A DNA stretch of 64,000 nt from Lingula anatina (Eukaryota > Animalia > Brachiopoda): the NCBI GenBank assembly GCA_051362555.1, contig CM120643.1, positions 21,084,848-21,148,847 of the forward strand, written 5' to 3'. Shown here piece after piece: positions 2,542-52,369 of the stretch. Under the pieces are notes generated by a model. That model was not told the origin of the DNA. It was given only the letters and a program-made list of their open reading frames with translations, and made no database searches. Positions within the stretch are counted from its first letter, which is position 1; every line of letters begins with the position of its first letter. The translations under genes were made by a program, and so were the position numbers.

Positions 2542-2882
2542 TAATGTCTCCTTCCAATTCGTTATGCTTTTTGTAACTGGCCTCATTAGCCTTCACATTC
2601 CAAAAGGCAATTGTTCATTAAATATAAGACCCCAGAACAGTAGTAGGCGTAAGTGGCACTGATGTCAGGCACGCCTACTGCAGCTGTTAGGGAGTAATTA
2701 AACAAATGATGTGATTAAACCATGTATTTCAACTTAATTTAGAAATATTTAAATGGCAGATGCAATATTCTGTAAGAATGTTTCATAATTTTCAGCTGTA
2801 ATTTCAGTTCTCAGGTAAAGAAAAAAAATCATGAGAAGGTACCTCTTCAGCATTGCCCTCTTTTCAACCATTTGGAATAAAG

Positions 2883-5800
2883 GAATAAGAGGCACAGAAG
2901 GCCCACCAGGCACAGGAGGTCCACCAGGCACAGGAGGTCCACCAGGTACTGGAGGCCCACCAGGAACAGGAGGTCCACCAGGAACAGGAGGCCCACCAGG
3001 TACAGGAGGTCCACCAGGAACAGGAGGTCCACCAGGAACAGGAGGTCCACCAGGAACAGGAGGCCCACCAGGCACAGGAGGTCCACCAGGCACAGGAGGT
3101 CCACCAGGCACAGGAGGTCCACCAGGAACAGGAGGTCCACCTGGTACAGGAGGTCCACCAGGAACAGGAGGTCCACCAGGAACAGGAGGTCCACCAGGAA
3201 CAGGAGGTCCACCAGGTACTGGAGGCCCACCAGGCACTGGGGGCCCACCAGGTACAGGTGGTCCCCCAGGAACAGGAGGTCCCCCAGGAACAGGAGGTCC
3301 ACCAGGTACAGGAGGTCCACCAGGTACAGGAGGTCCACCAGGTACAGGAGGTCCCCCAGGAACAGGAGGTCCACCAGGAACAGGTGGTCCACCAGGTACT
3401 GAAGGCCCACCAGGCACAGGAGGTCCACCAGGCACAGGTGGTCCACCAGGTACAGGAGGTCCACCAGGTACTGGAGGCCCACCAGGAACAGGAGGTCCAC
3501 CAGGTACAGGAGGTCCACCAGGCACTGGAGGCCCACCAGGAACAGGAGGTCCACCAGGCACAGGAGGTCCACCAGGTACTGGAGGCCCACCAGGAACAGG
3601 AGGTCCACCAGGCACTGGGGGCCCACCAGGTACAGGAGGTCCACCAGGCACAGGAGGTCCACCAGGAACAGGAGGCCCACCAGGTACAGGAGGTCCACCA
3701 GGCACAGGAGGTCCACCAGGCACAGGAGGTCCACCAGGAACAGGAGGTCCCCCAGGAACAGGAGGTCCACCAGGTACAGGAGGTCCACCAGGTACAGGAG
3801 GTCCACCAGGCACAGGAGGTCCACCAGGCACAGGAGGTCCACCAGGTACAGGAGGCCCACCAGGTACTGGAGGCCCACCAGGAACAGGAGGTCCACCAGG
3901 CACAGGAGGCCCACCAGGAACAGGAGGTCCACCAGGCACAGGAGGTCCCCCAGGAACAGGAGGTCCACCAGGTACAGGAGGTCCACCAGGCACTGGGGGC
4001 CCACCAGGTACAGGAGGTCCACCAGGCACAGGAGGTCCACCAGGCACAGGAGGCCCACCAGGAACAGGAGGTCCACCAGGTACAGGTGGTCCACCAGGAA
4101 CAGGAGGTCCCCCAGGAACAGGAGGTCCACCAGGAACAGGAGGTCCACCAGGTACAGGAGGTCCACCAGGTACTGGAGGCCCACCAGGAACAGAAGGTCC
4201 ACCAGGTACAGGAGGTCCACCAGGTACTGGAGGCCCACCAGGAACAGGAGGTCCACCAGGTACAGGAGGTCCACCAGGTACAGGAGGTCCACCAGGTACT
4301 GGAGGCCCACCAGGAACAGGTGGTCCACCAGGCACAGGAGGCCCACCAGGAACAGGAGGTCCACCAGGAACAGGAGGTCCACCAGGTACAGGTGGTCCAC
4401 CAGGCACAGTAGGTCCCCCAGGAACAGGAGGTCCACCAGGCACAGGAGGTCCACCAGGCACTGGAGGCCCACCAGGAACAGGAGGTCCACCAGGCACTGG
4501 AGGCCCACCAGGAACAGGAGGTCCACCAGGCACAGGAGGTCCACCAGGTACTGGAGGCCCACCAGGAACAGGAGGTCCACCAGGCACAGGAGGTCCACCA
4601 GGTACTGGAGGCCCACCAGGAACAGGAGGTCCACCAGGCACTGGAGGCCCACCAGGAACAGGAGGTCCACCAGGCACAGGAGGTCCACCAGGTACTGGAG
4701 GCCCACCAGGAACAGGAGGTCCACCAGGCACTGGGGGCCCACCAGGTACAGGAGGTCCACCAGGCACAGGAGGTCCACCAGGAACAGGAGGCCCACCAGG
4801 TACAGGAGGTCCACCAGGCACAGGAGGTCCACCAGGCACAGGAGGTCCACCAGGAACAGGAGGTCCACCAGGTACTGGAGGCCCACCAGGAACAGGAGGT
4901 CCACCAGGCACTGGGGGCCCACCAGGTACAGGAGGTCCACCAGGCACAGGAGGTCCACCAGGTACTGGAGGGCCACCAGGAACAGGAGGCCCACCAGGTA
5001 CAGGAGGTCCACCAGGAACAGGAGGTCCCCCAGGAACAGGAGGTCCACCAGGAACAGGAGGTCCACCAGGAACAGGAGGCCCACCAGGAACAGGAGGTCC
5101 ACCAGGCACAGGAGGACCACCAGGCACAGCAGGTCCACCAGGCACAGGAGGTCCACCAGGAACAGGAGGCCCACCAGGTACAGGAGGTCCACCAGGCACA
5201 GGAGGTCCACCAGGCACAGGAGGCCCACCAGGAACAGGAGGTCCACCAGGAACAGGAGGTCCACCAGGTACAGGAGGTCCACCAGGAACAGGAGGTCCAC
5301 CAGGCACAGGAGGTCCACCAGGCACAGGAGGTCCACCAGGAACAGGAGGTCCACCAGGTACTGGAGGCCCACCAGGAACAGGAGGTCCACCAGGCACTGG
5401 GGGCCCACCAGGTACAGGAGGTCCACCAGGCACAGGAGGTCCACCAGGTACTGGAGGTCCACCAGGCACTGGGGGCCCACCAGGTACAGGTGGTCCACCA
5501 GGAACAGGAGGTCCCCCAGGAACAGGAGGTCCACCAGGTACAGGAGGTCCACCAGGTACAGGAGGTCCACCAGGCACAGGAGGTCCACCAGGCACAGGAG
5601 GTCCACCAGGTACAGGAGGCCCACCAGGAACAGGAGGTCCACCAGGCACAGGAGGTCCACCAGGTACTGGAGGCCCACCAGGAACAGGAGGTCCACCAGG
5701 CACTGGGGGCCCACCAGGTACAGGAGGTCCACCAGGCACAGGAGGTCCACCAGGAACAGGAGGCCCACCAGGTACAGGAGGTCCACCAGGCACAGGAGGT

Positions 5801-8561: not shown

Positions 8562-11500
8562 GTAATTCGCAATCAGTTGTCTGACTGCTGCAGCCACAGT
8601 CATAAATTGTTAAGTTACATCTCGATTAGATTACTGCAACTGCATTTTATATGGTTGTCCAAAGAAACAAATTGCCAGACTGCAGCACATTCAAAATATT
8701 TTGGCCAGATTATTAACTCGGACATCCACAAGCACGTCTCCCAAGTTTTAAAAAGTTTACACTGGCTACCTCTACAAGCCAGAATTTTATTCAAAATTTT
8801 AGTTTTTACTCACGATACTTTTCATGGATTGGCACCAATCTACATCAATGAATTAGTTAGTCACTATGTTCCAATGCGAAATCTGCGGTCTGTAGACCAA
8901 TTGCTACTCAACCCAGTAAAAATGCAATTAAAAACCTACGGTGACATATCTTTTAAAGCTGCAGGTCCAAAGGAATGGAATCTATTACCGCTGGAAATCC
9001 GAGCAATTCAGTCTACCAAACATTTAAAAAAAGAACTCAAAACATACCTTTTTTAGGAAATATTTTGATTAACTCTTAATTGGTTTTATCAATCTTGTAT
9101 TAATTGCATTTAATTGTATGGAATAATGGCTGTTTTACCTAGATTTTATTTATGATATTTTATGTAGTATTATTTATGATATTTTATGTAAAGTCTACTG
9201 AACTTTTTAAAAGATTTTAGACTTAAAATAAATTTATTATTATTAGGCACAGGAGGTCCACCAGGTACAGGAGGTCCACCAGGCACAGGAGGTCCACCAG
9301 GTACAGGAGGCCCACCAGGAACAGGAGGTCCACCAGGTACAGGAGGCCCACCAGGAACAGGAGGTCCACCAGGTACAGGAGGTCCACCAGGAACAGGAGG
9401 TCCACCAGGTACTGGAGGCCCACCAGGAACAGGAGGTCCACCAGGTACAGGTGGCCCACCAGGAACAGGAGGTCCACCAGGTACAGGTGGTCCACCAGGC
9501 ACAGGAGGTCCCCCAGGAACAGGAGGTCCACCAGGCACAGGAGGTCCACCAGGTACTGGAGGCCCACCAGGAACAGGAGGTCCACCAGGCACAGGAGGAC
9601 CACCAGGCACAGTAGGTCCACCAGGCACAGGAGGGCCACCAGGAACAGGAGGCCCACCAGGTACAGGAGGTCCACCAGGCACAGGAGGTCCACCAGGTAC
9701 TGGAGGCCCACCAGGAACAGCAGGTCCACCAGGCACAGGAGGCCCACCAGGAACAGGAGGTCCACCAGGTACAGGTGGTCCACCAGGAACAGGAGGCCCA
9801 CCAGGAACAGGAGGCCCACCAGGAACAGGAGGTCCACCAGGAACAGGAGGCCCACCAGGAACAGGAGGTCCACCAGGAACAGGAGGTCCACCAGGAACAG
9901 GAGGTCCACCAGGAACAGGAGGCCCACCAGGAACAGGAGGTCCACCAGGTACAGGAGGTCCACCAGGAACAGGAGGTCCACCAGGCACAGGAGGCCCACC
10001 AGGTACAGGAGGTCCACCAGGAACAGGAGGTCCACCAGGAACAGGAGGTCCACCAGGCACAGGAGGTCCACCAGGTACAGGAGGTCCACCAGGAACAGGA
10101 GGCCCACCAGGTACAGGAGGTCCACCAGGAACAGGAGGTCCACCAGGAACAGGAGGTCCACCAGGCACAGGAGGTCCACCAGGTACTGGAGGCCCACCAG
10201 GTACAGGAGGTCCACCAGGCACAGGAGGACCACCAGGTACTGGAGGCCCACCAGGTACAGGAGGACCACCAGGCACAGGAGGCCCACCAGGAACAGGAGG
10301 TCCACCAGGTAATTCGCAATCAGTTGTCTGACTGCTGCAGCCACAGTCATAAATTGTTTAGTTACATCTCGATTAGATAACTGCAACTCCATTTTATACG
10401 GTTGTCCAAAGAAACAAATTGCCAGACTGCAGCACATTCAAAATATTTCGTCCAGATTATTAACTCGGACATCCACAAGCAAACACGTCTCCCAAGTTTT
10501 AAAAAGTTTACACTGGCTACCTCTACAAGCCAGAATTTTATTCAAAATTTTAGTTTTTACTCACGATGCTTTTTATGGATTGGCACCAATCTACATCAAT
10601 GAATTAGTTAGTCACTATGTTCCAATGCGAAATCTGCGGTCTGTAGACCAATTGCTACTCAACCCAGTAAAAATGCAATTAAAAACCTATGGTGACATAT
10701 GTTTTAAAGCTGCAGGTCTAAAGGAATGGAATCTATTACCGCTGGAAATCCGAGCAATTCAGTCTACCAAACATTTTAAAAAAGAACTCAAAACATACCT
10801 TTTTTAGGAAATATTTTGATTAACTCTTAATTGGTTTTATCAATCTTGTATTAATTGCATTTAATTGTATGGAATAATGGCTGTTTTACCTAGATTTTAT
10901 TTATGATATTTTATGTAGTATTATTTATGATATTTTATGTAAAGTCTACTGAACATTTTAAAAGGATTTTAGACTTAAAATAAATTTATTATTATTAGGC
11001 ACAGGAGGTCCACCAGGTACAGGAGGTCCACCAGGTACTGGAGGTCCACCAGGTACAGGAGGTCCACAAGGTACTGGAGGCCCACCAGGAACAGGAGGTC
11101 CACCAGGCACAGGAGGCCCACCAGGAACAGGAGGTCCACCAGGAACAGGAGGTCCACCAGGTACTGGAGGCCCACCAGGAACAGGAGGTCCACCAGGCAC
11201 TGGGGGCCCACCAGGAACAGGAGGTCCACCAGGCACAGGAGGTCCACCAGGTACTGGAGGCCCACCAGGAACAGGAGGTCCACCAGGTACAGGTGGTCCA
11301 CCAGGAACAGGAGGTCCCCCAGGAACAGGAGGTCCACCAGGAACAGGAGGTCCCCCAGGAACAGGAGGTCCACCAGGAACAGGAGGTCCACCAGGTACTG
11401 GAGGCCCACCAGGCACAGGAGGTCCACCAGGCACAGGAGGTCCACCAGGAACAGGAGGTCCACCAGGTACTGGAGGCCCACCAGGAACAGGAGGTCCACC

Positions 11501-14500
11501 AGGCACTGGGGGCCCACCAGGAACAGGAGGTCCACCAGGCACAGGAGGTCCACCAGGTACTGGAGGCCCACCAGGAACAGGAGGGCCACCAGGCACAGGA
11601 GGACCACCAGGTACAGCAGGTCCACCAGGCACAGGAGGGCCACCAGGAACAGGAGGTCCACCAGGTACAGGAGGTCCACCAGGCACAGGAGGTCCACCAG
11701 GTACTGGAGGCCCACCAGGTACAGGAGGTCCACCAGGCACAGGAGGACCACCAGGTACTGGAGGCCCACCAGGTACAGGAGGACCACCAGGCACAGGAGG
11801 CCCACCAGGAACAGGAGGTCCACCAGGTAATTCGCAATCAGTTGTCTGACTGCTGCAGCCACAGTCATAAATTGTTTAGTTACATCTCGATTAGATAACT
11901 GCAACTCCATTTTATACGGTTGTCCAAAGAAACAAATTGCCAGACTGCAGCACATTCAAAATATTTCGTCCAGATTATTAACTCGGACATCCACAAGCAA
12001 ACACGTCTCCCAAGTTTTAAAAAGTTTACACTGGCTACCTCTACAAGCCAGAATTTTATTCAAAATTTTAGTTTTTACTCACGATGCTTTTTATGGATTG
12101 GCACCAATCTACATCAATGAATTAGTTAGTCACTATGTTCCAATGCGAAATCTGCGGTCTGTAGACCAATTGCTACTCAACCCAGTAAAAATGCAATTAA
12201 AAACCTATGGTGACATATGTTTTAAAGCTGCAGGTCTAAAGGAATGGAATCTATTACCGCTGGAAATCCGAGCAATTCAGTCTACCAAACATTTTAAAAA
12301 AGAACTCAAAACATACCTTTTTTAGGAAATATTTTGATTAACTCTTAATTGGTTTTATCAATCTTGTATTAATTGCATTTAATTGTATGGAATAATGGCT
12401 GTTTTACTTAGATTTTATTTATGATATTTTATGTAGTATTATTTATGATATTTTATGTAAAGTCTACTGAACATTTTAAAAGGATTTTAGACTTAAAATA
12501 AATTTATTATTATTAGGCACAGGAGGTCCACCAGGTACAGGAGGTCCACCAGGTACAGGAGGTCCACCAGGAACAGCAGGTCCACCAGGCACAGGAGGGC
12601 CACCAGGAACAGGAGGCCCACCAGGTACAGGAGGTCCACCAGGCACAGGAGGTCCACCAGGTACAGCAGGTCCACCAGGCACAGGAGGGCCACCAGGAAC
12701 AGGAGGCCCACCAGGTACAGGAGGTCCACCAGGTACGGGAGGTCCACCAGGTACTGGAGGCCCACCAGGAACAGGAGGTCCACCAGGCACAGGAGGCCCA
12801 CCAGGCACAGGAGGTCCACCAGGAACAGGAGGTCCACCAGGCACAGGAGGCCCACCAGGAACAGGAGGTCCACCAGGAACAGGAGGTCCACCAGGAACAG
12901 GAGGTCCACCAGGTACAGGAGGTCCACCAGGAACAGGAGGTCCACCAGGTACAGGAGGCCCACCAGGAACAGGAGGTCCACCAGGTACAGGTGGTCCACC
13001 AGGCACAGGAGGTCCCCCAGGAACAGGAGGTCCACCAGGCACAGGAGGCCCACCAGGAACAGGAGGTCCACCAGGTACTGGAGGCCCACCAGGAACAGGA
13101 GGTCCACCAGGTACAGGAGGCCCACCAGGAACAGGAGGTCCACCAGGTACAGGTGGTCCACCAGGCACAGGAGGTCCACCAGGCACAGGAGGCCCACCAG
13201 GAACAGGAGGTCCACCAGGAACAGGAGGTCCACCAGGCACAGGAGGACCACCAGGTACAGGAGGTCCACCAGGAACAGGAGGTCCACCAGGAACAGGAGG
13301 CCCACCAGGTACAGGAGGTCCACCAGGCACAGGAGGTCCACCAGGTACTGGAGGCCCACCAGGTACAGGAGGTCCACCAGGCACAGGAGGTCCACCAGGT
13401 ACTGGAGGCCCACCAGGTACAGGAGGACCACCAGGCACAGGAGGCCCACCAGGAACAGGAGGTCCACCAGGTAATTCACAATCAGTTGTCTGACTGCTGC
13501 AGCCACAGTCATAAATTGTTAAGTTACATCTCGATTAGATTACTGCAACTGCATTTTATACGGTTGTCCAAAGAAACAAATTGCCAGACTGCAGCACATT
13601 CAAAATATTTTGGCCAGATTATTAACTCGGACATCCACAAGCAAACACGTCTCCCAAGTTTTAAAAAGTTTACACTGGCTACCTCTACAAGACAGAATTT
13701 TATTCAAAATTTTAGTTTTTACTCACGATACTTTTCATGGATTGGCACCAATCTACATCAATGAATTAGTTAGTCACTATGTTCCAATGCGAAATCTGCG
13801 GTCTGTAGACCAATTGCTACTCAACCCAGTAAAAATGCAATTAAAAACCTACGGTGACATATCTTTTAAAGCTGCAGGTCCAAAGGAATGGAATCTATTA
13901 CCGCTGGAAATCCGAGCAATTCAGTCTACCAAACATTTAAAAAAAGAACTCAAAACATACCTTTTTTAGGAAATATTTTGATTAACTCTTAATTGGTTTT
14001 ATCAATCTTGTATTAATTGCATTTAATTGTATGGAATAATGGCTGTTTTACCTAGATTTTATTTATGATATTTTATGTAGTATTATTTATGATATTTTAT
14101 GTAAAGTCTACTGAACATTTTAAAAGATTTTAGACTTAAAATAAATTTATTATTATTAGGCACAGGAGGTCCACCAGGTACAGGAGGTCCACCAGGTACA
14201 GGAGGTCCACCAGGTACTGGAGGCCCACCAGGAACAGGAGGTCCACCAGGCACAGGAGGCCCACCAGGAACAGGAGGTCCACCAGGCACAGGAGGTCCAC
14301 CAGGTACTGGAGGCCCACCAGGAACAGGAGGTCCACCAGGCACAGGAGGCCCACCAGGAACAGGAGGTCCACCAGGCACAGGAGGTCCACCAGGCACAGG
14401 AGGTCCACCAGGCACTGGAGGCCCACCAGGTACAGGAGGTCCACCAGGTACTGGAGGCCCACCAGGAACAGGAGGTCCACCAGGCACAGGAGGTCCACCA

Positions 14501-17500
14501 GGAACAGGAGGCCCACCAGGTACAGGAGGTCCACCAGGCACAGGAGGTCCACCAGGTACAGGAGGTCCACCAGGAACAGGAGGTCCACCAGGCACAGGAG
14601 GACCACCAGGTACAGCAGGTCCACCAGGCACAGGAGGGCCACCAGGCACAGGAGGACCACCAGGTACAGCAGGTCCACCAGGCACAGGAGGGCCACCAGG
14701 AACAGGAGGACCACCAGGCACAGGAGGTCCACCAGGTACTGGAGGCCCACCAGGTACAGGAGGACCACCAGGCACAGGAGGCCCACCAGGAACAGGAGGT
14801 CCACCAGGTAATTCGCAATCAGTTGTCTGACTGCTGCAGCCACAGTCATAAATTGTTTAGTTACATCTCGATTAGATTACTGCAACTCCATTTTATACGG
14901 TTGTCCAAAGAAACAAATTGCCAGACTGCAGCACATTCAAAATATTTCGGCCAGATTATTAACTCCGACATCCACAAGCAAACACGTCTCCCAAGTTTTA
15001 AAAAGTTTACACTGGCTACCTCTACAAGCCAGAATTTTATTCAAAATTTTAGTTTTTACTCACGATGCTTTTTATGGATTGGCACCAATCTACATCAATG
15101 AATTAGTTAGTCACTATGTTCCAATGCGAAATCTGCGGTCTGTAGACCAATTGCTACTCAACCCAGTAAAAATGCAATTAAAAACCTACGGTGACATATC
15201 TTTTAAAGCTGCAGGTCCAAAGGAATGGAATCTATTACCGCTGGAAATCCGAGCAATTCAGTCTACCAAAAATTTTTAAAAAGAACTCAAAACATACCTT
15301 TTTTAGGAAATATTTTGATTAACTCTTAATTGGTTTTATACATCTTGTATTAATTGCATTTAATTGTATGGAATAATGGCTGTTTTACCTAGATTTTATT
15401 TATGATATTTTATGTAGTATTATTTATGATATTTTATGTAAAGTCTACTGAACATTTTAAAAGGATTTTAGACTTAAAATAAATTTATTATTATTAGGCA
15501 CAGGAGGTCCACCAGGTACAGGAGGTCCACCAGGTACAGGAGGTCCACCAGGTACTGGAGGCCCACCAGGAACAGGAGGTCCACCAGGCACAGGAGGTCC
15601 ACCAGGTACTGGAGGCCCACCAGGTACTGGAGGTCCACCAGGCACAGGAGGCCCACCAGGAACAGGAGGTCCACCAGGTAATTCGCAATCAGTTGTCTGA
15701 CTCTGTTGCAGCCACAGTCATAAATTGTTTAGTTACATCTCGATTAGATTACTGCAACTCCATTTTATACAGTTGTCCAAAGAAACAAATTGTCAGACTG
15801 CAGCATATTCAAAATATTTCGTCCAGATTATTAACTCGGACATCCACAAGCAAACACGTCTCCCAAGTTTTAAAAAGTTTACACTGGCTACCTCTACAAG
15901 CCAGAATTTTATTCAAATTTTTAGTTTTTACTCACGATGCTTTTTATGGATTGGCACCAATCTACATCAATGAATTAGTTAGTCACTATGTTCCAATGCG
16001 AAATCTGCGGTCTGTAGACCAATTGCTACTCAACCCAGTAAAAATGCAATTAAAAACCTATGGTGACATATGTTTTAAAGCTGCAGGTCTAAAGGAATGG
16101 AATCTATTACCGCTGGAAATCCGAGCAATTCAGTCTACCAAACATTTTAAAAAAGAACTCAAAACATACCTTTTTTAGGAAATATTTTGATTAACTCTTA
16201 ATTGGTTTTATCAATCTTGTATTAATTGCATTTAATTGTATGGAATAATGGCTGTTTTACCTAGATTTTATTTATGATATTTTATGTAGTATTATTTATG
16301 ATATTTTATGTAAAGTCTACTGAACATTTTAAAAGGATTTTAGACTTAAAATAAATTTATTATTATTAGGCACAGGAGGTCCACCAGGTACAGGAGGTCC
16401 ACCAGGTACTGGAGGTCCACCAGGTACAGGAGGTCCACCAGGTACTGGAGGCCCACCAGGAACAGGAGGTCCACCAGGCACAGGAGGCCCACCAGGAACA
16501 GGAGGTCCACCAGGAACAGGAGGTCCACCAGGTACTGGAGGCCCACCAGGAACAGGAGGTCCACCAGGCACTGGGGGCCCACCAGGAACAGGAGGTCCAC
16601 CAGGCACAGGAGGTCCACCAGGTACTGGAGGCCCACCAGGAACAGGAGGTCCACCAGGTACAGGTGGTCCACCAGGAACAGGAGGTCCCCCAGGAACAGG
16701 AGGTCCACCAGGAACAGGAGGTCCCCCAGGAACAGGAGGTCCACCAGGAACAGGAGGTCCACCAGGTACTGGAGGCCCACCAGGCACAGGAGGTCCACCA
16801 GGCACAGGAGGTCCACCAGGAACAGGAGGTCCACCAGGTACTGGAGGCCCACCAGGAACAGGAGGTCCACCAGGCACTGGGGGCCCACCAGGAACAGGAG
16901 GTCCACCAGGCACAGGAGGTCCACCAGGTACTGGAGGCCCACCAGGAACAGGAGGGCCACCAGGCACAGGAGGACCACCAGGTACAGCAGGTCCACCAGG
17001 CACAGGAGGGCCACCAGGAACAGGAGGTCCACCAGGTACAGGAGGTCCACCAGGCACAGGAGGTCCACCAGGTACTGGAGGCCCACCAGGTACAGGAGGT
17101 CCACCAGGCACAGGAGGACCACCAGGTACTGGAGGCCCACCAGGTACAGGAGGACCACCAGGCACAGGAGGTCCACCAGGAACAGGAGGTCCACCAGGTA
17201 ATTCGCAATCAGTTGTCTGACTGCTGCAGCCACAGTCATAAATTGTTTAGTTACATCTCGATTAGATAACTGCAACTCCATTTTATACGGTTGTCCAAAG
17301 AAACAAATTGCCAGACTGCAGCACATTCAAAATATTTCGTCCAGATTATTAACTCGGACATCCACAAGCAAACACGTCTCCCAAGTTTTAAAAAGTTTAC
17401 ACTGGCTACCTCTACAAGCCACCCAGATAGCAAAGAGTGGTCGCGCCAACGTCGGCCCGACGACTTTGCCTCCGTCGGGCCAACGTTGGCAGACGACGTC

Positions 17501-38500: not shown

Positions 38501-41500
38501 TGCAGCCACAGTCATAATTTTTTTTTTTTTTTTTTTTTATTGACATCACAAAACAAAACATACATTTTTCACACTAAACACATATTACAACATATATGCA
38601 ACAGACACAAACTAGCTTACAGTAGTCTCATTGGACATTAACAGCACAAGGGAGTGACAGAATACGTTGCACAAAATAACAGAAGTAATAGTATACAGTA
38701 CACATAACACAAACTGATTAACATATATCGTAACATATAAACAAACAAACCAGCTTATTATCATATATAAGTCACATCGGATTCTACATATTACAAACGT
38801 ACTATTTATACCACAGTCACAATATATGATATTATGCCGGTTGTCGGGAATAACACAAAGCACCACTCACTTACAAGATCATACAGAACAATTAAGCGTA
38901 CAAAAGTCTCCACTTAGTTGTGAACTCAGGTACACATAACAAGTTGCTAAACATTACAAACCAACATATATCAAGTATCCACGAACAATCTGGTGCAACA
39001 CAAAAGACTGACAGTACGGAAAGATATTAGACATGCACAATTGGCTATGACTCCAAACAGTAAGAGATTGTCATACATTTACACTCAACTCGTATTGTAT
39101 CATTCTAAGTAAGGCTAAGTATTAAATTGTGTAAAATCTAGGTACATAGTCATAAATTGTTTAGTTACATCTCGATTAGATTACTGCAACTCCATTTTAT
39201 ACAGTTGTCCAAAGAAACAAATTGTCAGACTGCAGCACATTCAAAATATTTCGGCCAGATTATTAACTCGGACATCCACAAGCAAACACGTCTCCCAAGT
39301 TTTAAAAAGTTTACACTGGCTACCTCTACAAGCCAGAATTTTATTCAAATTTTTAGTTTTTACTCACGATGCTTTTTATGGATTGGCACCAATCTACATC
39401 AATGAATTAGTTAGTCACTATGTTCCAATGCGAAATCTGCGGTCTGTAGACCAATTGCTACTCAACCCAGTAAAAATGCAATTAAAAACCTACGGTGACA
39501 TATCTTTTAAAGCTGCAGGTCCAAAGGAATGGAATCTATTACCGCTGGAAATCCGAGCAATTCAGTCTACCAAAAATTTTTAAAAAGAACTCAAAACATA
39601 CCTTTTTTAGGAAATATTTTGATTAACTCTTAATTGGTTTTATCAATCTTGTATTAATTGCATTTAATTGTATGGAATAATGGCTGTTTTACCTAGATTT
39701 TATTCATGATATTTTATGTAGTATTATTTATGATATTTTATGTAAAGTCTACTGAACATTTTAAAAGGATTTTAGACTTAAAATAAATTTATTATTATTA
39801 GGCACAGGAGGTCCACCAGGTACAGGAGGTCCACCAGGCACAGGAGGTCCACCAGGTACAGGAGGCCCACCAGGAACAGGAGGTCCACCAGGTACAGGAG
39901 GTCCACCAGGAACAGGAGGTCCACCAGGTACTGGAGGCCCACCAGGAACAGGAGGTCCACCAGGCACAGGTGGCCCACCAGGAACAGGAGGTCCACCAGG
40001 TACAGGTGGTCCACCAGGCACAGGAGGTCCCCCAGGAACAGGAGGTCCACCAGGTACTGGAGGCCCACCAGGAACAGGAGGTCCACCAGCCACAGGAGGA
40101 CCACCAGGTACAGCAGGTCCACCAGGCACAGGAGGGCCACCAGGAACAGGAGGCCCACCAGGTACAGGAGGTCCACCAGGTACAGGAGGTCCACCAGGTA
40201 CTGGAGGCCCACCAGGAACAGGAGGTCCACCAGGCACAGGAGGCCCACCAGGAACAGGAGGTCCACCAGGTACAGGTGGTCCACCAGGAACAGGAGGCCC
40301 ACCAGGTACAGGAGGTCCACCAGGAACAGGAGGTCCACCAGGAACAGGAGGCCCACCAGGAACAGGAGGTCCACCAGGTACAGGAGGTCCACCAGGTACT
40401 GGAGGCCCACCAGGAACAGGAGGTCCACCAGGAACAGGAGGTCCACCAGGAACAGGAGGTCCACCAGGCACAGGAGGCCCACCAGGTACAGGAGGTCCAC
40501 CAGGAACAGGAGGTCCACCAGGAACAGGAGGTCCACCAGGTACAGGAGGTCCACCAGGAACAGGAGGCCCACCAGGTACAGGAGGTCCACCAGGAACAGG
40601 AGGTCCACCAGGAACAGGAGGTCCACCAGGAACAGGAGGTCCACCAGGTACTGGAGGCCCACCAGGTAGAGGAGGTCCACCAGGCACTGGAGGCCCACCA
40701 GGTACAGGAGGTCCACCAGGCACAGGAGGTCCACCAGGTACTGGAGGCCCACCAGGTACTGGAGGTCCACCAGGCACAGGAGGCCCACCAGGAACAGGAG
40801 GTCCACCAGGTAATTCGCAATCAGTTGTCTGACTCTGCTGCAGCCACAGTCATAAATTGTTTAGTTACATCTCGATTAGATTACTGCAACTCCATTTTAT
40901 ACAGTTGTCCAAAGAAACAAATTGCCAGACTGCAGCACATTCAAAATATTTCGGCCAGATTATTAACTCGGACATCCACAAGCAAACACGTCTCCCAAGT
41001 TTTAAAAAGTTTACACTGGCTACCTCTACAAGCCATAATTTTATTCAAATTTTTAGTTTTTACTCACGATGCTTTTTATGGATTGGCACCAATCTACATC
41101 AATGAATTAGTTAGTCACTATGTTCCAATGCGAAATCTGCGGTCTGTAGACCAATTGCTACTCAACCCAGTAAAAATGCAATTAAAAACCTACGGTGACA
41201 TATCTTTTAAAGCTGCAGGTCCAAAGGAATGGAATCTATTACCGCTGGAAATCCGAGCAATTCAGTCTACCAAACATTTTTAAAAAGAACTCAAAACATA
41301 CCTTTTTTAGGAAATATTTTGATTAACTCTTTATTGGTTTTATCAATCTTGTATTAATTGCATTTAATTGTATGGAATAATGGCTGTTTTACCTAGATTT
41401 TATTTATGATATTTTATGTAAAGTCTACTGAACATTTTAAAAGGATTTTAGACTTAAAATAAATTTATTATTATTAGGCACAGGAGGTCCACCAGGCACA

Positions 41501-44500
41501 GGAGGTCCACCAGGAACAGGAGGTCCACCAGGCACAGGAGGTCCACCAGGAACAGGAGGTCCACCAGGTACAGGAGGTCCACCAGGAACAGGAGGTCCAC
41601 CAGGCACAGGAGGTCCACCAGGTACTGGAGGTCCACCAGGCACAGAAGGTCCACCAGGAACAGGAGGTCCACCAGGCACAGGAGGTCCACCAGGCACAGG
41701 AGGTCCACCAGGCACTGGAGGCCCACCAGGTACAGGAGGTCCACCAGGTACTGGAGGCCCACCAGGAACAGGAGGTCCACCAGGCACAGGAGGTCCACCA
41801 GGCACTGGAGGCCCACCAGGAACAGGAGGTCCACCAGGTACTGGAGGCCCACCAGGAACAGGAGGGCCACCAGGCACAGGAGGACCACCAGGTACTGGAG
41901 GCCCACCAGGAACAGGAGGTCCACCAGGTACAGGAGGCCCACCAGGAACAGGAGGTCCACCAGGTAATTCGCAATCAGTTGTCTGACTGCTGCAGCCACA
42001 GTCATAAATTGTTTAGTTACATCTCGATTAGATTACTGCAACTCCATTTTATACGGTTGTCCAAAGAAACAAATTGCCAGACTGCAGCACATTCAAAATA
42101 TTTCGTCCAGATTATTAACTCGGACATCCACAAGCAAACACGTCTCCCAAGTTTTAAAAAGTTTACACTGGCTATCTCTACAAGCCAGAATTTTATTCAA
42201 AATTTTAGTTTTTACTCACGATGCTTTTTATGGATTGGCACCAATCTACATCAATGAATTAGTTAGTCACTATGTTCCAATGCGAAATCTGCGGTCTGTA
42301 GACCAATTGCTACTCAACCCAGTAAAAATGCAATTAAATACCTACGGTGACATGTGTTTTAAAGCTGCAGGTCTAAAGGAATGGAATCTATTACCGCTGG
42401 AAATCCGAGCAATTCAGTCTACCAAACATTTTAAAAAAGAACTCAAAACATACCTTTTTTAGGAAATATTTTGATGAACTCTTAATTGATTTTATCAATC
42501 TTGTATTAATTGCATTTAATTGTATGGAATAATGGCTGTTTTACCTAGATTTTATTTATGATATTTTATGTAAAGTCTACTGAACATTTTAAAAGGATTT
42601 TAAAAGGACTTGAAATAAATTTATTATTAGGCACAGGAGGTCCACCAGGTACTGGAGGTCCACCAGGTACAGGAGGTCCACCAGGTACTGGAGGCCCACC
42701 AGGAACAGGAGGTCCACCAGGCACAGGAGGCCCACCAGGAACAGGAGGTCCACCAGGCACAGGAGGTCCACCAGGTACTGGAGGCCCACCAGGAACAGGA
42801 GGTCCACCAGGAACAGGAGGTCCACCAGGTACTGGAGGCCCACCAGGAACAGGAGGTCCACCAGGTACAGGAGGTCCACCAGGAACAGGAGGTCCACCAG
42901 GAACAGGAGGTCCACCAGGTACTGGAGGCCCACCAGGAACAGGAGGTCCACCAGGCACAGGAGGACCACCAGGTACAGCAGGTCCACCAGGAACAGGAGG
43001 TCCACCAGGCACAGGAGGTCAACCAGGCACAGGAGGTCCACCAGGCACAGGAGGTCCACCAGGTACTGGAGGCCCACCAGGAACAGGAGGTCCACCAGGC
43101 ACAGGAGGTCCACCAGGTACTGGAGGCCCACCAGGTACAGGAGGTCCACCAGGCACAGGAGGTCCACCAGGCACAGGAGGCCCACCAGGAACAGGAGGTC
43201 CACCAGGTACAGGAGGTCCACCAGGAACAGGAGGTCCACCAGGTACTGGAGGCCCACCAGGAACAGGAGGTCCACCAGGCACAGGAGGCCCACCAGGAAC
43301 AGGAGGTCCACCAGGTACAGGAGGTCCACCAGGAACAGGAGGTCCACCAGGAACAGGAGGTCCACCAGGTACTGGAGGCCCACCAGGAACAGGAGGTCCA
43401 CCAGGAACAGGAGGTCCACCAGGAACAGGAGGTCCACCAGGCACAGGAGGTCCACCAGGCACAGGAGGTCCACAAGGTACTGGAGGCCCACCAGGTACAG
43501 GAGGTCCACCAGGCACAGGAGGTCCACCAGGCACAGGAGGTCCACCAGGTACTGGAGGCCCACCAGGAACAGGAGGTCCACCAGGCACAGGAGGCCCACC
43601 AGGAACAGGAGGTCCTCCAGGTACAGGAGGTCCACCAGGAACAGGAGGTCCACCAGGAACAGGAGGTCCACCAGGTACTGGAGGCCCACCAGGAACAAGA
43701 GGTCCACCAGGCACTGGGGGCCCACCAGGAACAGGAGGTCCATCAGGCACAGGAGGTCCACCAGGTACTGGAGGTCCACCAGGAACAGGAGGTCCACCAG
43801 GTACAGGTGGTCCACCAGGAACAGGAGGTCCCCCAGGAATAGGAGGTCCACCAGGAACAGGAGGTCCACCAGGTACTGGAGGCCCACCAGGCACAGGAGG
43901 TCCACCAGGCACAGGAGGTCCACCAGGCACAGGAGGTCCACCAGGTACTGGAGGCCCTCCAGGAACAGGAGGTCCACCAGGCACAGGAGGCCCACCAGGA
44001 ACAGGAGGTCCACCAGGTACAGGTGGTCCACCAGGCACAGGAGGTCCCCCAGGAACAGGAGGTCCACCAGGCACAGGAGGTACCCCAGGAACAGGAGGTC
44101 CACCAGGCACAGGAGGCCCACCAGGAACAGGAGGTCCACCAGGTAATTCGCAATCAGTTGTCTGACTGCTGCAGCCACAGTCATAAATTGTTTAGTTACA
44201 TCTCGATTAGATTACTGCAACTCCATTTTATACGGTTGTCCAAAGAAACAAATTGCCAGACTGCAGCACATTCAAAATATTTCGGCCAGATTATTAACTC
44301 GGACATCCACAAGCAAACACGTCTCCCAAGTTTTAAAAAGTTTACACTGGCTACCTCTACAAGCCAGAATTTTATTCAAATTTTTAGTTTTTACTCACGA
44401 TGCTTTTTATGGATTGGCACCAATCTACATCAATGAATTAGTTAGTCACTATGTTCCGATGCGAAATCTGCGGTCTGTAGACCAATTGCTACTCAACCCA

Positions 44501-47343
44501 GTAAAAATGCAATTAAAAACTTACGGTGACATGTCTTTTAAAGCTGCAGGTCCAAAGGAATGGATTCTATTACCGCTGGAAATCCGAGCAATTCAGTCTA
44601 CCAAACATTTTAAAAAAGAACTCAAAACATACCTTTTTTAGGAAATATTTTGATTAACTCTTAATTGGTTTTATAAATCTTGTATTAATTGCATTTAATT
44701 GTATGGAATAATGGCTGTTTTACCTAGATTTTATTTATGATATTTTATGTAGTATTATTTATGATATTTTATGTAAAGTCTACTGAACATTTTAAATGGA
44801 TTTTAGACTTAAAATAAATTTATTATTATTAGGCACAGGAGGTCCACCAGGTACAGGAGGTCCACCAGGTACTGGAGGTCCACCAGGTACAGGTGGTCCA
44901 CCAGGAACAGGAGGCCCACCAGGCACAGGAGGTCCACCAGGAACAGGAGGTCCACCAGGTACAGGAGGTCCACCAGGTACTGGAGGTCCACCAGGTACAG
45001 GAGGTCCACCAGGTACTGGAGGCCCACCAGGAACAGGAGGTCCACCAGGCACAGGAGGCCCACCAGGAACAGGAGGTCCACCAGGTACAGGAGGTCCACC
45101 AGGTACTGGAGGCCCACCAGGAACAGAAGGCCCACCAGGAACAGGAGGTCCACCAGGCACTGGAGGTCCACCAGGAACAGGAGGCCCACCAGGCACAGGA
45201 GGTCCACCAGGAACAGGAGGTCCACCAGGCACAGGAGGTCCACCAGGCACTGGAGGCCCACCAGGCAAAGGAGGTCCACCAGGAACAGGAGGTCCACCAG
45301 GCACAGGAGGTCCACCAGGTACAGGTGGTCCACCAGGAACAGGAGGCCCACCAGGGAGAAGAGGTCCACCAGGGACAGGAGGTCCACCCGGACAGAAGGG
45401 AATGAAAGGTTAAATTTACCCATGTTCAATACGAAATATATATTTTATAATTTACCTAGAAAAGCACTCAGAGAGCACAGACCTCCGCCAAGGGAGTAAA
45501 GTCTCCATTCAATGTCGTTTCACCCTTAAATTTTTGATATTTTTTTTATTCTTGATTGATTATTGATCCGGATCACCATCAAAAACTAATCACCTGTTCC
45601 TTGGCCCACTTCCCTCAGTTCCTGAAATTTTATCAAAATCGGTCAATAACTCAGTTTTTTTTAAATTTTTTATTATTGATTATTGATTGAGTATTGATCC
45701 AGATTACCACCAAAAACTATTCACTTGTAAGTTAACCCATTTCTGACCTACCCTGAAAATGCCATCGAAATCCATCCATAACTTTTTGAGTTATATTGAT
45801 GACAAACAAACAAACAAACAGGGGTGAAAACATAACCTCCTTGGCGGAGGTAAAAATATTATTTCTTTCAAGTAATAATGATAGTAACTAAAGCCAATGG
45901 CTGCAAAAAATGGATTAATTCATTGGGAAGATTTCTTGAAAATTACAGTTTAGGTGTTTTGGCCTATTATTGCATTTGTTTTTACTCATCCCTCTTTTTT
46001 AACACTGATGAAAATGATATTTGAACTTGTTTATAGAGTTTTGATATATTTTGTTTAATCAAAGATTTAACCTTTTAAGGAATGAAAGGACTTCCTGGAG
46101 GGGGAAAGGGATCTAAGGGAATGAAAGGTAAGACGGTGAACAAGATAGACGATACAAGCTGCCCAAATTACAAACACAATGCAGTTGAATACAAAATTAG
46201 AATTCACTTTCTTTAAATGAATTCACTTTCTTCGTATGAGATCTATATTTCACAGTAAAAACATTGCAAACAACTCACAGAAATACATTTTCTATTTTAC
46301 CACAAAAATGGCAGTTAAAGCAATTATTCTTAAATCTGTGCTCGTCTTCAGACCATGTGACCTCCATACAGGTAGATGGCTATAAAAAACAAACTTTCTA
46401 GAAAAAAATCCATTGACTAAATTTGAATGTAGAAATGGATTTATTAACCATTGGTAAGTATGGGAAAATTGTTTACCCCGGGGAAATTCATTATTTGACC
46501 AAAATGAACAGTTGTTATCCCTTTAATTATGCATCTGCTTTATTATTCTGTCTTTAAAGCACTTTCCCTTCAAAAGACAAAAGGCTGCGCCGTGCTAGAT
46601 TTTATTAATAGTTACCACATTGTTCAATAGGATGGACGGTCCGAAGCGTATGAAAATACAGGCAAGCGTGTACACTGATTCTATTGTGAGGAGCGCCGCC
46701 ATTGGTAAAAAAGGAGATAATGTGGGTGTATAGAGACATATGTCGAAGACACGTGTTTTCTCCCGTCCTGTAACGTCCATAACGCATGGGCAAAGTGACC
46801 ATGACTCCTTCTACCGGGTTCACAGATTTTCCCTTGATTTCCACAGATGTGTATCTGGCTTATTCTTGACAATTTTGTCTTATGCCCCGCAAGATTTTTT
46901 TACTTGGAATCAATAGCCTTTTGCAGCTAGATGAGTAGATATTGACTTCTTTTGTTTACTGAAGAGCTTGGCATATTTCATCACTCGGCCGGTCTCCGGT
47001 ATAGAGTAGACCCTAAACACATATAATAAGTAATTTATGGGCAGTGTTGAAGTCAATCAGATGACACACGTTTTGTATCCATCGCATAAAGCACGGAGCG
47101 GCAAATTGTCTTTTGACGGGAAAGTGCTTCAAATCTTGATGAAATTTAAGGGTGCATGCTAAATAGCTGTCAGCCGAGCAGACAAGAAAGTTAATTACCC
47201 CCTTACAGCTTGTAGTAGGCGGGACGGACATTTAAGCCGGATTATCTGACAGTAATCTAGTGAGACTCCCCGCGGGGATAGATCGATCTAAAAGGACTGG
47301 GAATACAGCCTAAGTCACCGAATTAGAGCTATTACCCTATTGG

Positions 47344-47382
<39 letters not shown>

Positions 47383-50300: not shown

Positions 50301-50598
50301 CATATAACCTCTAGCTTTATTTTTCAATTCAGGTATGAAAGGCGACAGAGGGATGCCAGGTTTGAAAGGGATGAAAGGCATGAAAGGCAACAGAGGGACA
50401 GGTTCCAAGGGAATGAAGGGCGATAGAGGGATGCCGGGTTTCAATGGGATTAAAGGGATGAAAGGCGACAAAGGGAGAAGAGGTAACAGAGGGATGAAAG
50501 GCAACAGAGGGATGAAAGGCAACAAAGGGAGGAGAGGTAACAGAGGGATGAAGGGCTCCAAAGGATCCCCAGGTAGGATAATCAATTAAATTTGTTTT

Positions 50599-50647
<49 letters not shown>

Positions 50648-52369
50648 TATACGTACACATACGTAAACATGTGCCAGTAGATACACACAACTGAATTAGC
50701 ACACACACACACACACACGCACGCACGCACGCACGCACGCACGCATACCATTCGGCACGAAATCAAATCACTGCGTACCAAAATCGAAAGCACATTTCAT
50801 TCCGTTTTTCAGGAATGATACTAATCCTACCAAACAGAGGCCGGACGACCCCAGCTGGTCTACCATTTGGAACAGGCCGTGGTACCTTAGGAGGCTTCCA
50901 AACCAATGCAGGTTTCGGTACAACTGCGAGCGCCGGAAACACTCCGCGTTTTGGACAGAACAACAGGGGGCTCACCATATTTAGGAACCAAAATTTCGGT
51001 GAGTTTGGTTTGTTTTCGGTTAAGATTCATATTTTCCCCCGAACCGGTTCTGACTGCCGTGGTTAACGCACTGGCCTGGCAGATCCGGGGGTGGGGGAGG
51101 GGGTTACAAGCCTAACTGACTTTACCGCACATCGTTCGCATACTTTTTTTCAATTTTGAAGGGTTGAGGAGGAGGATCATTGATTGCTTTGAAGACAACA
51201 TCGATATTTTTACTTTGTCAGTTGTTCATTCCCCATCTCTTGGTCAGACAGATTATAAACACTTTTTTTCTATTATTTTCGCTTTTTATACACTTACTGT
51301 GTACATCGTAAATGTGTAATTGTATAGAGTAGCTGGAGTTAGAGTGTGCAACAGCTGAACATGGATACAATAACATTGCTTTCGTTCTTTTGTCAGCTGC
51401 AACCCGTTCATCCGTCTTAAATACAGGGATCTTCGGACAGAACTTTGGACAAAACTTTAGACTAAACCTTGGACAGAACTTTAGACTTAACGTTGGAGGG
51501 ACCACAACGAGAGGACCAAATATTTTCAGTAAGTATTAAAAAAAGTATGAAAGGTGATAGGCCGAATTTTCGGAGCGATTCGTCGAATGATATATCATGT
51601 TCAATCTCTTTTAGATATCTTTACACTAGAGAACAACATCATGCTTATACCAGTATATGTATCCAGTAAAATCCGTCCTCTATAGTACTATACCTTTAGT
51701 AGGTCTAGTTCTAACAACCTAATATAAGTTTTTCATTATTATACGTACGGCATGAAAAGCTGTACTGAGTTAGCTTTTGTCAAATCTAATAACACAATTA
51801 GAAAAACATGTTTCTACTGGATTTATAATTTATTATTCAGATTGTTGAGTTTCTTTAATATGTACATTTTTCTTCTTTGGTATATACTTATTTCTTCTGT
51901 CGCTTGTAAATATTTATTGCATCTGTATTTACAAGATCGACTTAAGTGCAACTGATTTAATTTCACTCGCGGTGTTATTTTCTTGTTTGTTTGTTTCGAT
52001 GTAAAGGTAGTATACATTTCATAGTGTCAAACGGACTGTTACCGATTTTACTCACTCACATGTATTTCCGTTTCTCCAGGATTCCCCCTATTTAACAGAC
52101 TACAATCTGAGTCTAAGAGTATCGATAGAATTGACCAAAATCAAAAGTCACTGAAAACAGATGTGAACAACGTTGTCGCAGTAACAATCACGCTGGCGGT
52201 AGCGGTCGTGGTGGTGCTGCTGGTGGTGATTGCTGTCGTGTGGAGAAGAGCAGCAAGGGCCAGGGAGACATTACGGGAGACATTACGACAGGAAATTTCC
52301 CAGCTACAAGAACAAATAAACAATGAATCTGCTACACATAACAGCGACGGCGACAGTTCACTAGTGTAA
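2883..52369 (+). CDS. Multi-exon gene for a giant collagen-like (Gly-Thr-Gly-Gly-Pro-Pro)n protein with a C-terminal transmembrane anchor, about 8,500 aa; 23 exons in the model, 5' end unresolved
   Basis: All 23 exons have AG acceptors, all but the terminal exon have GT donors, and they join in phase 1 into one open frame ending at TAA 52367-52369. The repeat exons after the first are exact multiples of 18 nt. Unit-to-unit variation is mostly synonymous in the GTGGPP frame. Confidence 0.85.
9247..10308 (+). CDS. Repeat exon 2 (59 units)
   Basis: ttattag|GCACA ... CCAG|gtaatt; 1062 nt = 59x18. Confidence 0.8.
10999..11826 (+). CDS. Repeat exon 3 (46 units)
   Basis: Same splice signals; 828 nt = 46x18. 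Confidence 0.8.
12517..13470 (+). CDS. Repeat exon 4 (53 units)
   Basis: Same splice signals; 954 nt = 53x18. Confidence 0.8.
14160..14807 (+). CDS. Repeat exon 5 (36 units)
   Basis: Same splice signals; 648 nt = 36x18. Confidence 0.8.
15498..15677 (+). CDS. Repeat exon 6 (10 units)
   Basis: Same splice signals; 180 nt = 10x18. Confidence 0.8.
15678..16369 (+). pseudogene. Least-decayed intronic L2 copy (161-codon ORF2 C-terminal fragment still open, 15693..16178)
   Basis: Keeps the 2 nt (gactCTg) that most other copies have lost; no RT catalytic core. Confidence 0.8.
16370..17197 (+). CDS. Repeat exon 7 (46 units; near-identical to exons 3 and 9)
   Basis: Same splice signals; 828 nt. Confidence 0.8.
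17422..22938. mobile_element. 5.5-kb TIR DNA transposon (CCC termini, 2-bp CA TSD; CMC/EnSpm-like, no transposase seen)
   Basis: TIRs of ~35 bp (CCCAGATAGCAA...); CCGACGTCGG subterminal repeats. Intron length 6209 = 690 + 5517 + 2 against the empty sister introns. Confidence 0.92.
19626..21929. mobile_element. Nested 2.3-kb CCC-terminal TIR element (AT duplication) with subterminal minisatellites
   Basis: at|CCCAGCAGGCAAATCAAC ... GTTGAGTGCCCGCTGGG|at; ~110-bp repeats at 19640-20260 and ~60-bp repeats at 21590-21910, rich in TCAAC/GTTGA. Confidence 0.85.
23407..24468 (+). CDS. Repeat exon 8 (59 units; very similar to exon 2)
   Basis: Same splice signals; 1062 nt. Confidence 0.8.
25159..25986 (+). 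CDS. Repeat exon 9 (46 units)
   Basis: Same splice signals; 828 nt. Confidence 0.8.
26677..28926 (+). CDS. Repeat exon 10 (125 units)
   Basis: Same splice signals; 2250 nt = 125x18. Confidence 0.8.
29617..30786 (+). CDS. Repeat exon 11 (65 units)
   Basis: Same splice signals; 1170 nt = 65x18. Confidence 0.8.
31477..32808 (+). CDS. Repeat exon 12 (74 units)
   Basis: Same splice signals; 1332 nt = 74x18. Confidence 0.8.
33498..35513 (+). CDS. Repeat exon 13 (112 units)
   Basis: Same splice signals; 2016 nt = 112x18. Confidence 0.8.
36204..38471 (+). CDS. Repeat exon 14 (126 units)
   Basis: Acceptor ttattag; variant donor CCAG|gtagtt; 2268 nt = 126x18. Confidence 0.78.
38518..39147 (-). mobile_element. 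630-bp poly(A)-tailed retroposed fragment (3' UTR-like) with 8-bp TSD AGTCATAA
   Basis: Poly(T) at 38518-38538 on + strand (AATAAA running into poly(A) on -). TSD at 38510-38517 and 39148-39155. Intron length 1330 = 692 + 630 + 8. Confidence 0.88.
39802..40809 (+). CDS. Repeat exon 15 (56 units; one Gly->Ala at 40089-40091)
   Basis: Same splice signals; 1008 nt = 56x18. Confidence 0.8.
41478..41963 (+). CDS. Repeat exon 16 (27 units)
   Basis: Same splice signals; 486 nt = 27x18. Confidence 0.8.
42631..44142 (+). CDS. Repeat exon 17 (84 units)
   Basis: Same splice signals; 1512 nt = 84x18; ORF 42558..44165. Confidence 0.8.
44833..45408 (+). CDS. Repeat exon 18; the repeat grades into unique collagen sequence (GKG, GRR, GQKGMKG)
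   Basis: ORF 44796..45413; 576 nt = 32x18; non-LINE donor AAAG|gttaaa. Confidence 0.85.
45456..45853 (-). mobile_element. Helentron/DINE-1-like non-autonomous element
   Basis: Subterminal inverted repeat acctccgccaagg / ccttggcggaggt, terminal hairpin acctccttggcggaggt, (ACAA)n microsatellite; partial second copy at about 59075-59246. Confidence 0.6.
46080..46127 (+). CDS. Small collagen exon [17 protein letters not shown]
   Basis: ttttaag|GA ... AAAG|gtaaga; 48 nt, phase 1-1. Confidence 0.85.
47344..47398. repeat. (CAT)n(AAT)n microsatellite
   Basis: Directly visible. Confidence 0.95.
50333..50572 (+). CDS. Basic Lys/Arg/Met-rich collagen exon ([12 protein letters not shown]...GSKGSPG)
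   Basis: ttcaattcag|GT ... CCAG|gtagga; 240 nt; ORF 50335..50589. Confidence 0.9.
50602..50746. repeat. (CT)n and (CA)n/(CACG)n microsatellites in an intron
   Basis: Directly visible. Confidence 0.95.
50813..50998 (+). CDS. Non-collagenous G/T/F/N-rich exon ([20 protein letters not shown]...RNQNF)
   Basis: tttttcag|GA ... TTCG|gtgagt; 186 nt, phase 1-1; ORF 50815..51066. Confidence 0.85.
51397..51528 (+). CDS. Exon [44 protein letters not shown]
   Basis: ttcttttgtcag|CT ... TTCA|gtaagt; 132 nt, phase 1-1, no stops. Confidence 0.85.
52080..52369 (+). CDS. Terminal coding exon: heptad-like stalk, TM helix ([24 protein letters not shown]), RR stop-transfer, short tail ending -DSSLV*
   Basis: tttctccag|GA; phase-1 join places ORF 52163..52369 in frame. 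Confidence 0.85.

Follow-up and report, generated by a model that had tools for sequence, protein, structure and literature searches.

The window, i.e. the whole stretch of 64,000 nucleotides of Lingula anatina DNA analysed here, carries on its forward strand a predicted gene whose 23 exons join, in a splice model built on the window, into one frame of 8,544 amino acids with a single stop at 52367-52369. The coding sequence is complete within the window, beginning at an ATG (position 2831) that has an in-frame stop five codons 5′ of it. Exons were defined by a simple rule, each repeat block being bounded by an AG before and a GT after, with the addition of five short 3′ exons; all 22 resulting introns are GT..AG and phase 1. 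The repeat itself comprises 18 blocks of an 18-bp unit with 1,371 pattern matches at exact spacing. The last match reads GQKGMK and is excluded from the unit count, leaving 1,370 units of GTGGPP type (exactly GTGGPP in 1,303 of the 1,370) and 69 distinct unit sequences. Outside the repeat, the base composition is that of animal-type DNA (36–38% GC). A first-pass annotation made from the same letters had proposed a 23-exon single frame of about 8,500 amino acids with about 1,371 GTGGPP units; both figures stand, and the present model agrees with it at all five junctions that it gave (45408/46080, 46127/50333, 50572/50813, 50998/51397 and 51528/52080). Its start at 2883 does not, since it assumed an acceptor (2882) and missed the in-frame ATG upstream. 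Just 5′ of this ATG, at 2780-2816, a T-rich tract is followed by three stacked AG acceptors, which suggests that the 5′ UTR contains an intron and that a non-coding exon lies farther upstream. The features are as follows.

2831..2893, + strand: start codon and predicted signal peptide of about 20–21 amino acids, in the array frame (from the ATG and hydropathy)
2891..8561, + strand: exon 1 array, 315 GTGGPP units
8562..44832, + strand: exons 2–17 alternating with LINE-derived introns, every exon length a multiple of 18 bp
9247-10308, 10999-11826, 12517-13470, 14160-14807, 15498-15677 and 16370-17197, + strand: exons 2–7
23407-24468, 25159-25986, 26677-28926, 29617-30786, 31477-32808 and 33498-35513, + strand: exons 8–13
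36204-38471, 39802-40809, 41478-41963 and 42631-44142, + strand: exons 14–17
8562-9246 and 44143-44832, + strand: first and last LINE-derived intron copies (667–692 bp, nested insertions excluded)
44143..44832, + strand: example intron, with GT donor, about 160 sense codons of a LINE ORF2 C-terminus, 3′ UTR with AATAAA, (TTA)n and AG
17422..22938, strand not assigned: DNA transposon-like element of 5,517 bp in intron 7, with inverted ends from CCCAG and a 2-bp CA duplication, presumably of CACTA/EnSpm type
38518..39144, − strand: poly(A)-tailed retroposon fragment, antisense in intron 14, with a target duplication of about 11 bp
44833..45408, + strand: exon 18, final array units and change to Lys-rich collagen
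46080..46127, + strand: exon 19, Lys-rich collagen
50333..50572, + strand: exon 20, basic Gly-X-Y collagen (PF01391, E 5e-18)
50813..50998, + strand: exon 21, short hydrophobic motif and Gly/Thr/Asn/Phe linker
51397..51528, + strand: exon 22, Gly/Gln/Asn/Phe linker (sense reads in RNA run X14)
52080..52369, + strand: exon 23, heptad-patterned segment (by eye), transmembrane (TM) helix, 42-residue tail and stop (sparse sense reads in runs X14 and X16)
about 52178-52240, + strand: TM helix, in exon 23
52582..52645, + strand: candidate polyadenylation signals, AATAAA at 52582 and 52640

Layout of the predicted protein

The predicted protein consists, in order, of a start of about 20 residues, the 1,370 units, about 100 residues of Lys/Arg-rich collagen, a linker, a TM helix and a tail. 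The start is signal-peptide-like, as judged by hydropathy only (9-residue peak of 2.0). Uninterrupted Gly-X-Y runs extend over 2,377, 368, 10 and 19 triplets; Gly accounts for 4,069 of the 8,220 array residues and Thr for one in six. The linker expected after the collagen is present and Cys-free, with a length of about 136 residues instead of the 105 first estimated. The C-terminal TM helix and tail of about 40 residues proposed earlier are likewise recovered, as a 21-residue stretch with a mean hydropathy of 3.25 followed by 42 residues.

Its collagen-like nature is indicated by the long Gly-X-Y run with conserved third-residue Gly and by the PF01391 match on exon 20, which was the only match above cut-off when six pieces of the protein were scanned against Pfam; the array scored 12.6 bits against the Pfam collagen model, below the 27.2 cut-off. 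In agreement with the first-pass annotation, Cys is absent from the whole predicted protein, and COLFI, NC1 and C1q gave no Pfam match when exons 20–23 were scanned singly. A PDB search with the repeat returned generic collagen chains only. The strongest hydrophobic stretch lies at the C-terminus and not, as in vertebrate-type transmembrane collagens, at the N-terminus. Membrane mucins have a Ser/Thr-dominated VNTR and a SEA or similar juxtamembrane domain; here, Thr is one residue in six and Gly one in two, and a SEA-like domain had no Pfam match.

LINE-derived introns

The array introns are 17 copies of one 5′-truncated LINE end, 97.5–100% identical, which start with GTAATT (GTAGTT in one copy) and end in (TTA)n-AG. 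The 15 copies free of nested insertions lie 0–17 substitutions apart in about 690 bp, and introns 2 and 8 are identical. Because the flanking units (one before, one after) are identical at 17/17 introns, the sequence points to one LINE insertion followed by tandem amplification together with its flanking units. Seventeen independent LINE insertions were rejected as an explanation and, within the array, the independent insertion at many sites that characterizes introners was not found, truncation point and flanks being common to 17/17.

Homology to the approximately 160 intron codons was found at E<=1e-10 in 65 of 91 candidate proteins, and tblastn places the intron in the last two-thirds of homologous proteins, which continue upstream of the first intron codon. 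This codon is Val in none of 47 homologues and Arg/Lys in 27 (47 of the 65 matched the pattern). We infer that AGGTA represents the duplicated target, one copy giving the donor GT and the other the AG. The intron ORF contains SRLDYCN and LHWLP motifs, which we take to be those of L2/CR1 LINEs. RVT_1 was matched in one of 26 aligned members (E 0.002), and a PDB search with the LINE profile gave no match. The introns thus have the ORF2 homology, 5′ truncation and short-repeat tail of L2/CR1-type LINE fragments, with a weak RVT_1 match and a tentative clade assignment from these motifs. Truncation at the 5′ end and tails of short tandem repeats have been described for L2 elements (PMC2653535).

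Several further observations concern these introns. Both later insertions (2/2) fell into intron copies and none into the 24.7 kb of array exon, a distribution that is not significant alone. An AATAAA is kept in every LINE copy about 20 bases 5′ of the acceptor, and intronic polyadenylation there could yield a secreted, anchor-less form of variable length. Joining any in-array CAG|GT to any CCACCAG|G preserves the frame, i.e. the array tolerates mis-splicing; this tolerance may explain how the LINE insertion survived. Outside the gene, old LINE-like remnants are present at 54708-54908 (+ strand, tblastn) and 63472-63812 (− strand, by eye).

Length of the array and integrity of the assembly

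It is improbable, though worth stating, that the assembled array length is artefactual or belongs to a private allele, the usual gene being far shorter. Of the array region, 11,113 bp fall within exact repeats of at least 300 bp, intron 2 is identical to intron 8, and the relatives described below hold just 8–41 GTxGPP units, although on short contigs. Against this reading, exact duplicates in the array region stay below 2 kb, with a maximum of 1,444 bp; scattered changes separate the duplicated exons (2 and 8; 3, 7 and 9), two unique nested insertions (introns 7 and 14) anchor the array middle, and the units are of 69 distinct sequences. Recent unequal crossing-over therefore fits these sequence features better than assembly collapse or expansion, and the check for an expanded assembly raised by the first-pass annotation, as far as it can be made on the sequence, gives no sign of simple expansion.

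Is the array coding?

In the joined array, even the five alternative frames have only 0–5 stops, so that a stop-free frame is weak evidence here; as a proof of coding it was rejected. The substitution pattern is more telling. Differences from the consensus unit amount to 1,709 synonymous (6 sites) versus 69 non-synonymous (12 sites), and no indel occurs in the 24.7 kb array versus 7 gap blocks in 10.3 kb of 15 aligned intron copies. A non-coding satellite is ruled out by the codon-position pattern.

Amino acid changes were also grouped into events by their flanking units, with counts that depend on the clustering rule. Over the whole array, the two register glycines show 1 event, the third-position (Y) Gly 13 and all non-register codons 34, the class-level contrast being 1/12 (register) versus 13/24 (P 0.011); in exons 2–18 alone, the register glycines show 1 event versus 26 other non-synonymous ones (P 0.0003). 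For recent mutations, intron singletons (23 in 10,300 bp) provided the neutral rate for exons 2–18, the last 15 edge units being dropped. Register-glycine singletons are depleted (1 seen versus 9.3 expected, P about 0.001) and other non-synonymous singletons fit neutrality (17 seen versus 18.6 expected). Compared with Y-position Gly alone, the register difference is not significant at the singleton level (1 versus 3, P 0.11).

Since recent mutations are neutral save at register glycines, the array is likely translated, also past the first intron, and the pattern indicates that selection on the Gly-X-Y register has been active since the amplification, downstream of the first intron too. Retention of intron 1 would halt the frame after 7 codons; together with register selection downstream, this implies splicing.

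RNA evidence

Four of nine same-species RNA runs (X11, X14, X16 and X17; 6–25% of each) were mapped on 45300-53300. Most reads in this region belong to interspersed repeats inside introns; those at 45456-45853, 46229-46500 and 47150-47306 (introns 18–19) attract thousands of RNA reads from other loci. On the unique 3′ exons, about one read pair is present in two of the four runs (X14 and X16). In X14, about 45, 171, 0 and 69 letters are covered in four bins over exons 22–23, and in X16 about 256 letters of exon 23 and UTR on the sense side; X11 and X17 have zero depth on exons 22–23, and exons 19–21 have zero depth in all four runs. The RNA-seq check of junctions that the first-pass annotation had called for is accordingly divided in its outcome: among the splice joints listed for the four runs over 45300-53300, none equals a modelled junction and none links the repeat to the TM exon, whereas the X14 coverage fits one sense pair spliced across 51528/52080, as deduced from depth at a level too sparse for the listed joints.

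Reads of the ordinary array occur at the region edge, 20 in X16 (17 versus 3 by strand, 16 starts), 3 each in X14 and X17 and none in X11. At the 90% mapping limit stand 137 of 1,365 array 90-mers and, because relatives' arrays stay at most 86% against this limit, the reads of X14, X16 and X17 probably come from the present array or a close paralogue; they could derive from paralogues or pre-mRNA. In all, the gene looks weakly expressed in the sampled runs, and the full-length mRNA is a prediction.

These data leave some room for a rather unlikely alternative, in which the mature mRNA contains the array only in part, or a shorter, secreted form ending in the first LINE copy predominates, the 8,544-residue form being rare or absent. 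Such a product would agree with the lack of a repeat-to-TM junction read among the listed joints, with the 532 CAG|GT and 1,306 CCACCAG|G array sites that would permit in-frame skipping, and with the AATAAA just 5′ of the acceptor in every LINE copy. It is harder to reconcile with register-Gly selection that persists in exons 2–18 and with in-array donors that are mostly GTACAG/GTACTG, farther from consensus than the intron GTAATT; in addition, the X16 array reads are not below the number predicted from 3′ depth, in a rough comparison.

A family of GTGGPP membrane proteins

A protein search with the first 100 amino acids gave four matches. Two relatives, P0001 and P0002 (Owenia fusiformis CAH1790264.1), consist of GTxGPP repeats, collagen, linker, TM helix and tail. 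A motif scan of metagenome contigs for (GTGGPP)3, three perfect units, gave 21 loci, of which 20 are arrays (12 intronless frames of about 6 gene types and 8 intron-bearing fragments); the remaining candidate, L008, was rejected as a GC-rich unrelated frame. The scan selected on the motif, leaving the layout outside the selection criterion, and all 12 intronless frames close with collagen, a linker, a hydrophobic helix and a short tail; a signal-like start is present in 8 of them. A C-terminal hydrophobic stretch is present in 9/9 family proteins measured. Across 326 hexamers from 10 family proteins, Gly1 is kept in 309, Gly4 in 304 and Gly3 in 225, the third position of relatives also accommodating Gln, Val, Glu, Ala, Ser and Phe. 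In L011 and L013 an intron falls at the GMK-G point where exon 18 has one, and the linker measures 133–136 residues in L001, P0001 and the window protein.

The window protein and its relatives (P0001, P0002, L001–L020) share a GTxGPP array, Lys-rich collagen, a linker, a C-terminal TM helix and a short basic tail. Relatives with both ends are 339–861 residues long with 8–41 units; the window gene has more than 30 times more units and differs in having no lectin or CBM domain. When its post-collagen part was compared with the family, two of nine comparisons beat all but 1–3 of 200 shuffles, with scores of 37–40 that probably stem from the TM helix. Membership of the window gene is thus assigned from motif and layout, not from clear non-repeat homology, whereas P0002 and L006 score 176 outside the repeat versus 28 when shuffled. 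In some relatives CBM_14 or C-type lectin is matched weakly, with scores short of the cut-off. L006:136-1815 and P0002 display clear orthology of a Cys-rich juxtamembrane part with a weak CBM_14 (chitin-binding) match. L009:110-2692 has a signal peptide, a C-type lectin match that is weak, collagen, a TM helix and a pair of GTGGPP arrays with a Cys-rich module between them, the repeat there being a stalk between binding domains.

Other searches returned little. A TM-exon search (a weak one) retained none of 3,431 candidates; a profile of P0001 and P0002 retrieved ordinary collagens such as type VII, with GTGGPP in 0 of 148 further matches; and (GTGGPP)3 was absent from viral contigs. In bacterial and archaeal genomes it has one match (L022), of animal-type exon look. 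L022 lies on a contig of a bacterial MAG, where an AT-rich stretch precedes a GTGGPP collagen frame, and is likely an animal contaminant. In a search of the main texts of openly accessible papers, no description of the family was found, and 'GTGGPP' was met only in collagen-peptide and proteomics work. The window gene is probably a giant member of what appears to be a so far undescribed family of collagen-like proteins with a C-terminal anchor.

Proposed working of the protein

Given these results, the preferred reading, to which a probability of about 0.55 is attached, is a 23-exon gene whose LINE introns are spliced out and whose full GTGGPP protein forms a triple-helical, membrane-anchored filament of about 2.4 micrometres. 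The sequence shows that a truncated LINE entered the array at CCAG|G and was copied 17 times with flanking units; the target duplication would have supplied GT and AG, each LINE copy being exactly spliced out so that the frame survives. Array length would be set by unequal crossing-over, as in a VNTR. The collagen helix rises 0.29 nm per residue, and about 8,330 residues would give a rod of about 2.4 micrometres. A signal peptide would export the chain as a type I membrane protein with a C-terminal anchor. At the membrane end, the heptad segment, TM helix and Lys-rich collagen would bring three chains into register, from where they would zip outwards; collagen folding proceeds from the C-terminal end (PMC11923368). 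Hydroxylation would affect the second Pro of every GPP, and O-glycosylation perhaps Thr, the product being a low-melting, uncharged cell-surface spacer or coat filament, with possible shedding at Arg-X-X-Arg sites in exon 20.

The stability of such a helix deserves attention. In host–guest peptides, Gly at Y is among the most destabilizing residues. The same is reported for Gly at X (PMC12862961), and Y substitutions cost up to 21 degrees (PMC7824840). For this reason a helix with Gly at every second Y is expected, by analogy with these peptides, to be of marginal stability, perhaps dependent on cold water, on length or on glycans.

An unlikely, yet not negligible, alternative is that the full protein is made but that its GTGGPP part is a single-chain polyproline-II or Gly-packed bundle, mucin-like with O-glycosylated Thr, the triple helix being confined to the Lys-rich part near the membrane. 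Gly as half of the residues, an array below the Pfam collagen cut-off and one Thr per unit would suit this structure, as would the succession of signal peptide, VNTR, TM helix and tail known from membrane mucins, and Gly-X-X polyproline-II bundles also predict conservation of register Gly. However, the array continues in register into ordinary collagen, the third position of relatives accepts Gln, Val, Glu, Ala, Ser and Phe, and bundles would presumably need turns, of which there are none in 2,377 triplets.

Comparison with known systems

Transmembrane collagens XIII, XVII, XXIII and XXV and the choanoflagellate ChCL have a Gly-X-Y ectodomain and one membrane helix, as here, where a trimer is likewise likely. 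Those of vertebrates are type II. The anchor of ChCL is also N-terminal (bioRxiv 10.1101/2021.10.08.463732), whereas the window protein has a C-terminal anchor, a signal-like start and an ectodomain made of a single hexapeptide in 1,370 copies.

Annelid cuticle collagens, to which the first-pass annotation had pointed, reach up to 2.4 micrometres (Gaill et al., cited in PMC11766948 and PMC2443231), equal to the length computed here, and that of Riftia is Thr-rich like the window array (PMC11766948, PMC2443231). The link is not borne out by composition, with about one-third Gly in these collagens (PMC11766948) versus one-half in the window array (4,069/8,220); moreover, the passages concerned mention no membrane anchor, which the window protein has.

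With respect to gene structure, Argiope MaSp2 and flagelliform spidroin are giant repeat genes with iterated introns homogenized to about 97.6% (PMC9779670), as here. The main text of that study mentions no transposon origin for these introns, whereas the window introns are a LINE end throughout and exon lengths vary freely. Introners are transposable elements that become introns upon insertion, about 5% of classified cases being non-LTR, but they seed many independent sites (PMC12130899), in contrast to the 17 window copies, which derive from one insertion and tandem duplication. A LINE-born intron and homogenized iterated introns were not found together in the literature searched.

Significance

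Three findings go beyond the first-pass annotation, namely a start resembling a signal peptide, a family of relatives and the derivation of the introns from a LINE; the gene is real and unusual and has a rare intron history. As a broader and more tentative proposal, GTGGPP proteins would constitute a hitherto undescribed family of animal membrane collagens, type I in topology, with a conserved half-Gly stalk whose length is set by repeat expansion; the Lingula member, grown via a LINE-turned-intron copied 17 times, would then possess the longest collagen helix found on record (>8,300 residues, about 2.4 micrometres), in a cell-surface filament as large as has long been reported for the cuticle collagens of worms. 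For comparison, the longest collagen domains in the literature consulted are of 1,380 residues in human and up to 6,000 in bacteria (PMC11923368); an alga has one of >4,000 residues (bioRxiv 10.1101/2021.10.08.463732). Measurements in the 1990s gave animal collagens of micrometre length, which one paper doubted because no sequence matched them (PMC2443231).

A predicted collagen domain of >8,300 residues, nearly all of one sequence, is a natural test of whether a triple helix tolerates Gly at every second Y, and the array introns make it possible to trace how a LINE gave rise to an intron that then spread via unequal crossing-over. Finally, the family is poorly recovered by protein search (four matches), so that annotations may lack a class of surface proteins in invertebrates.
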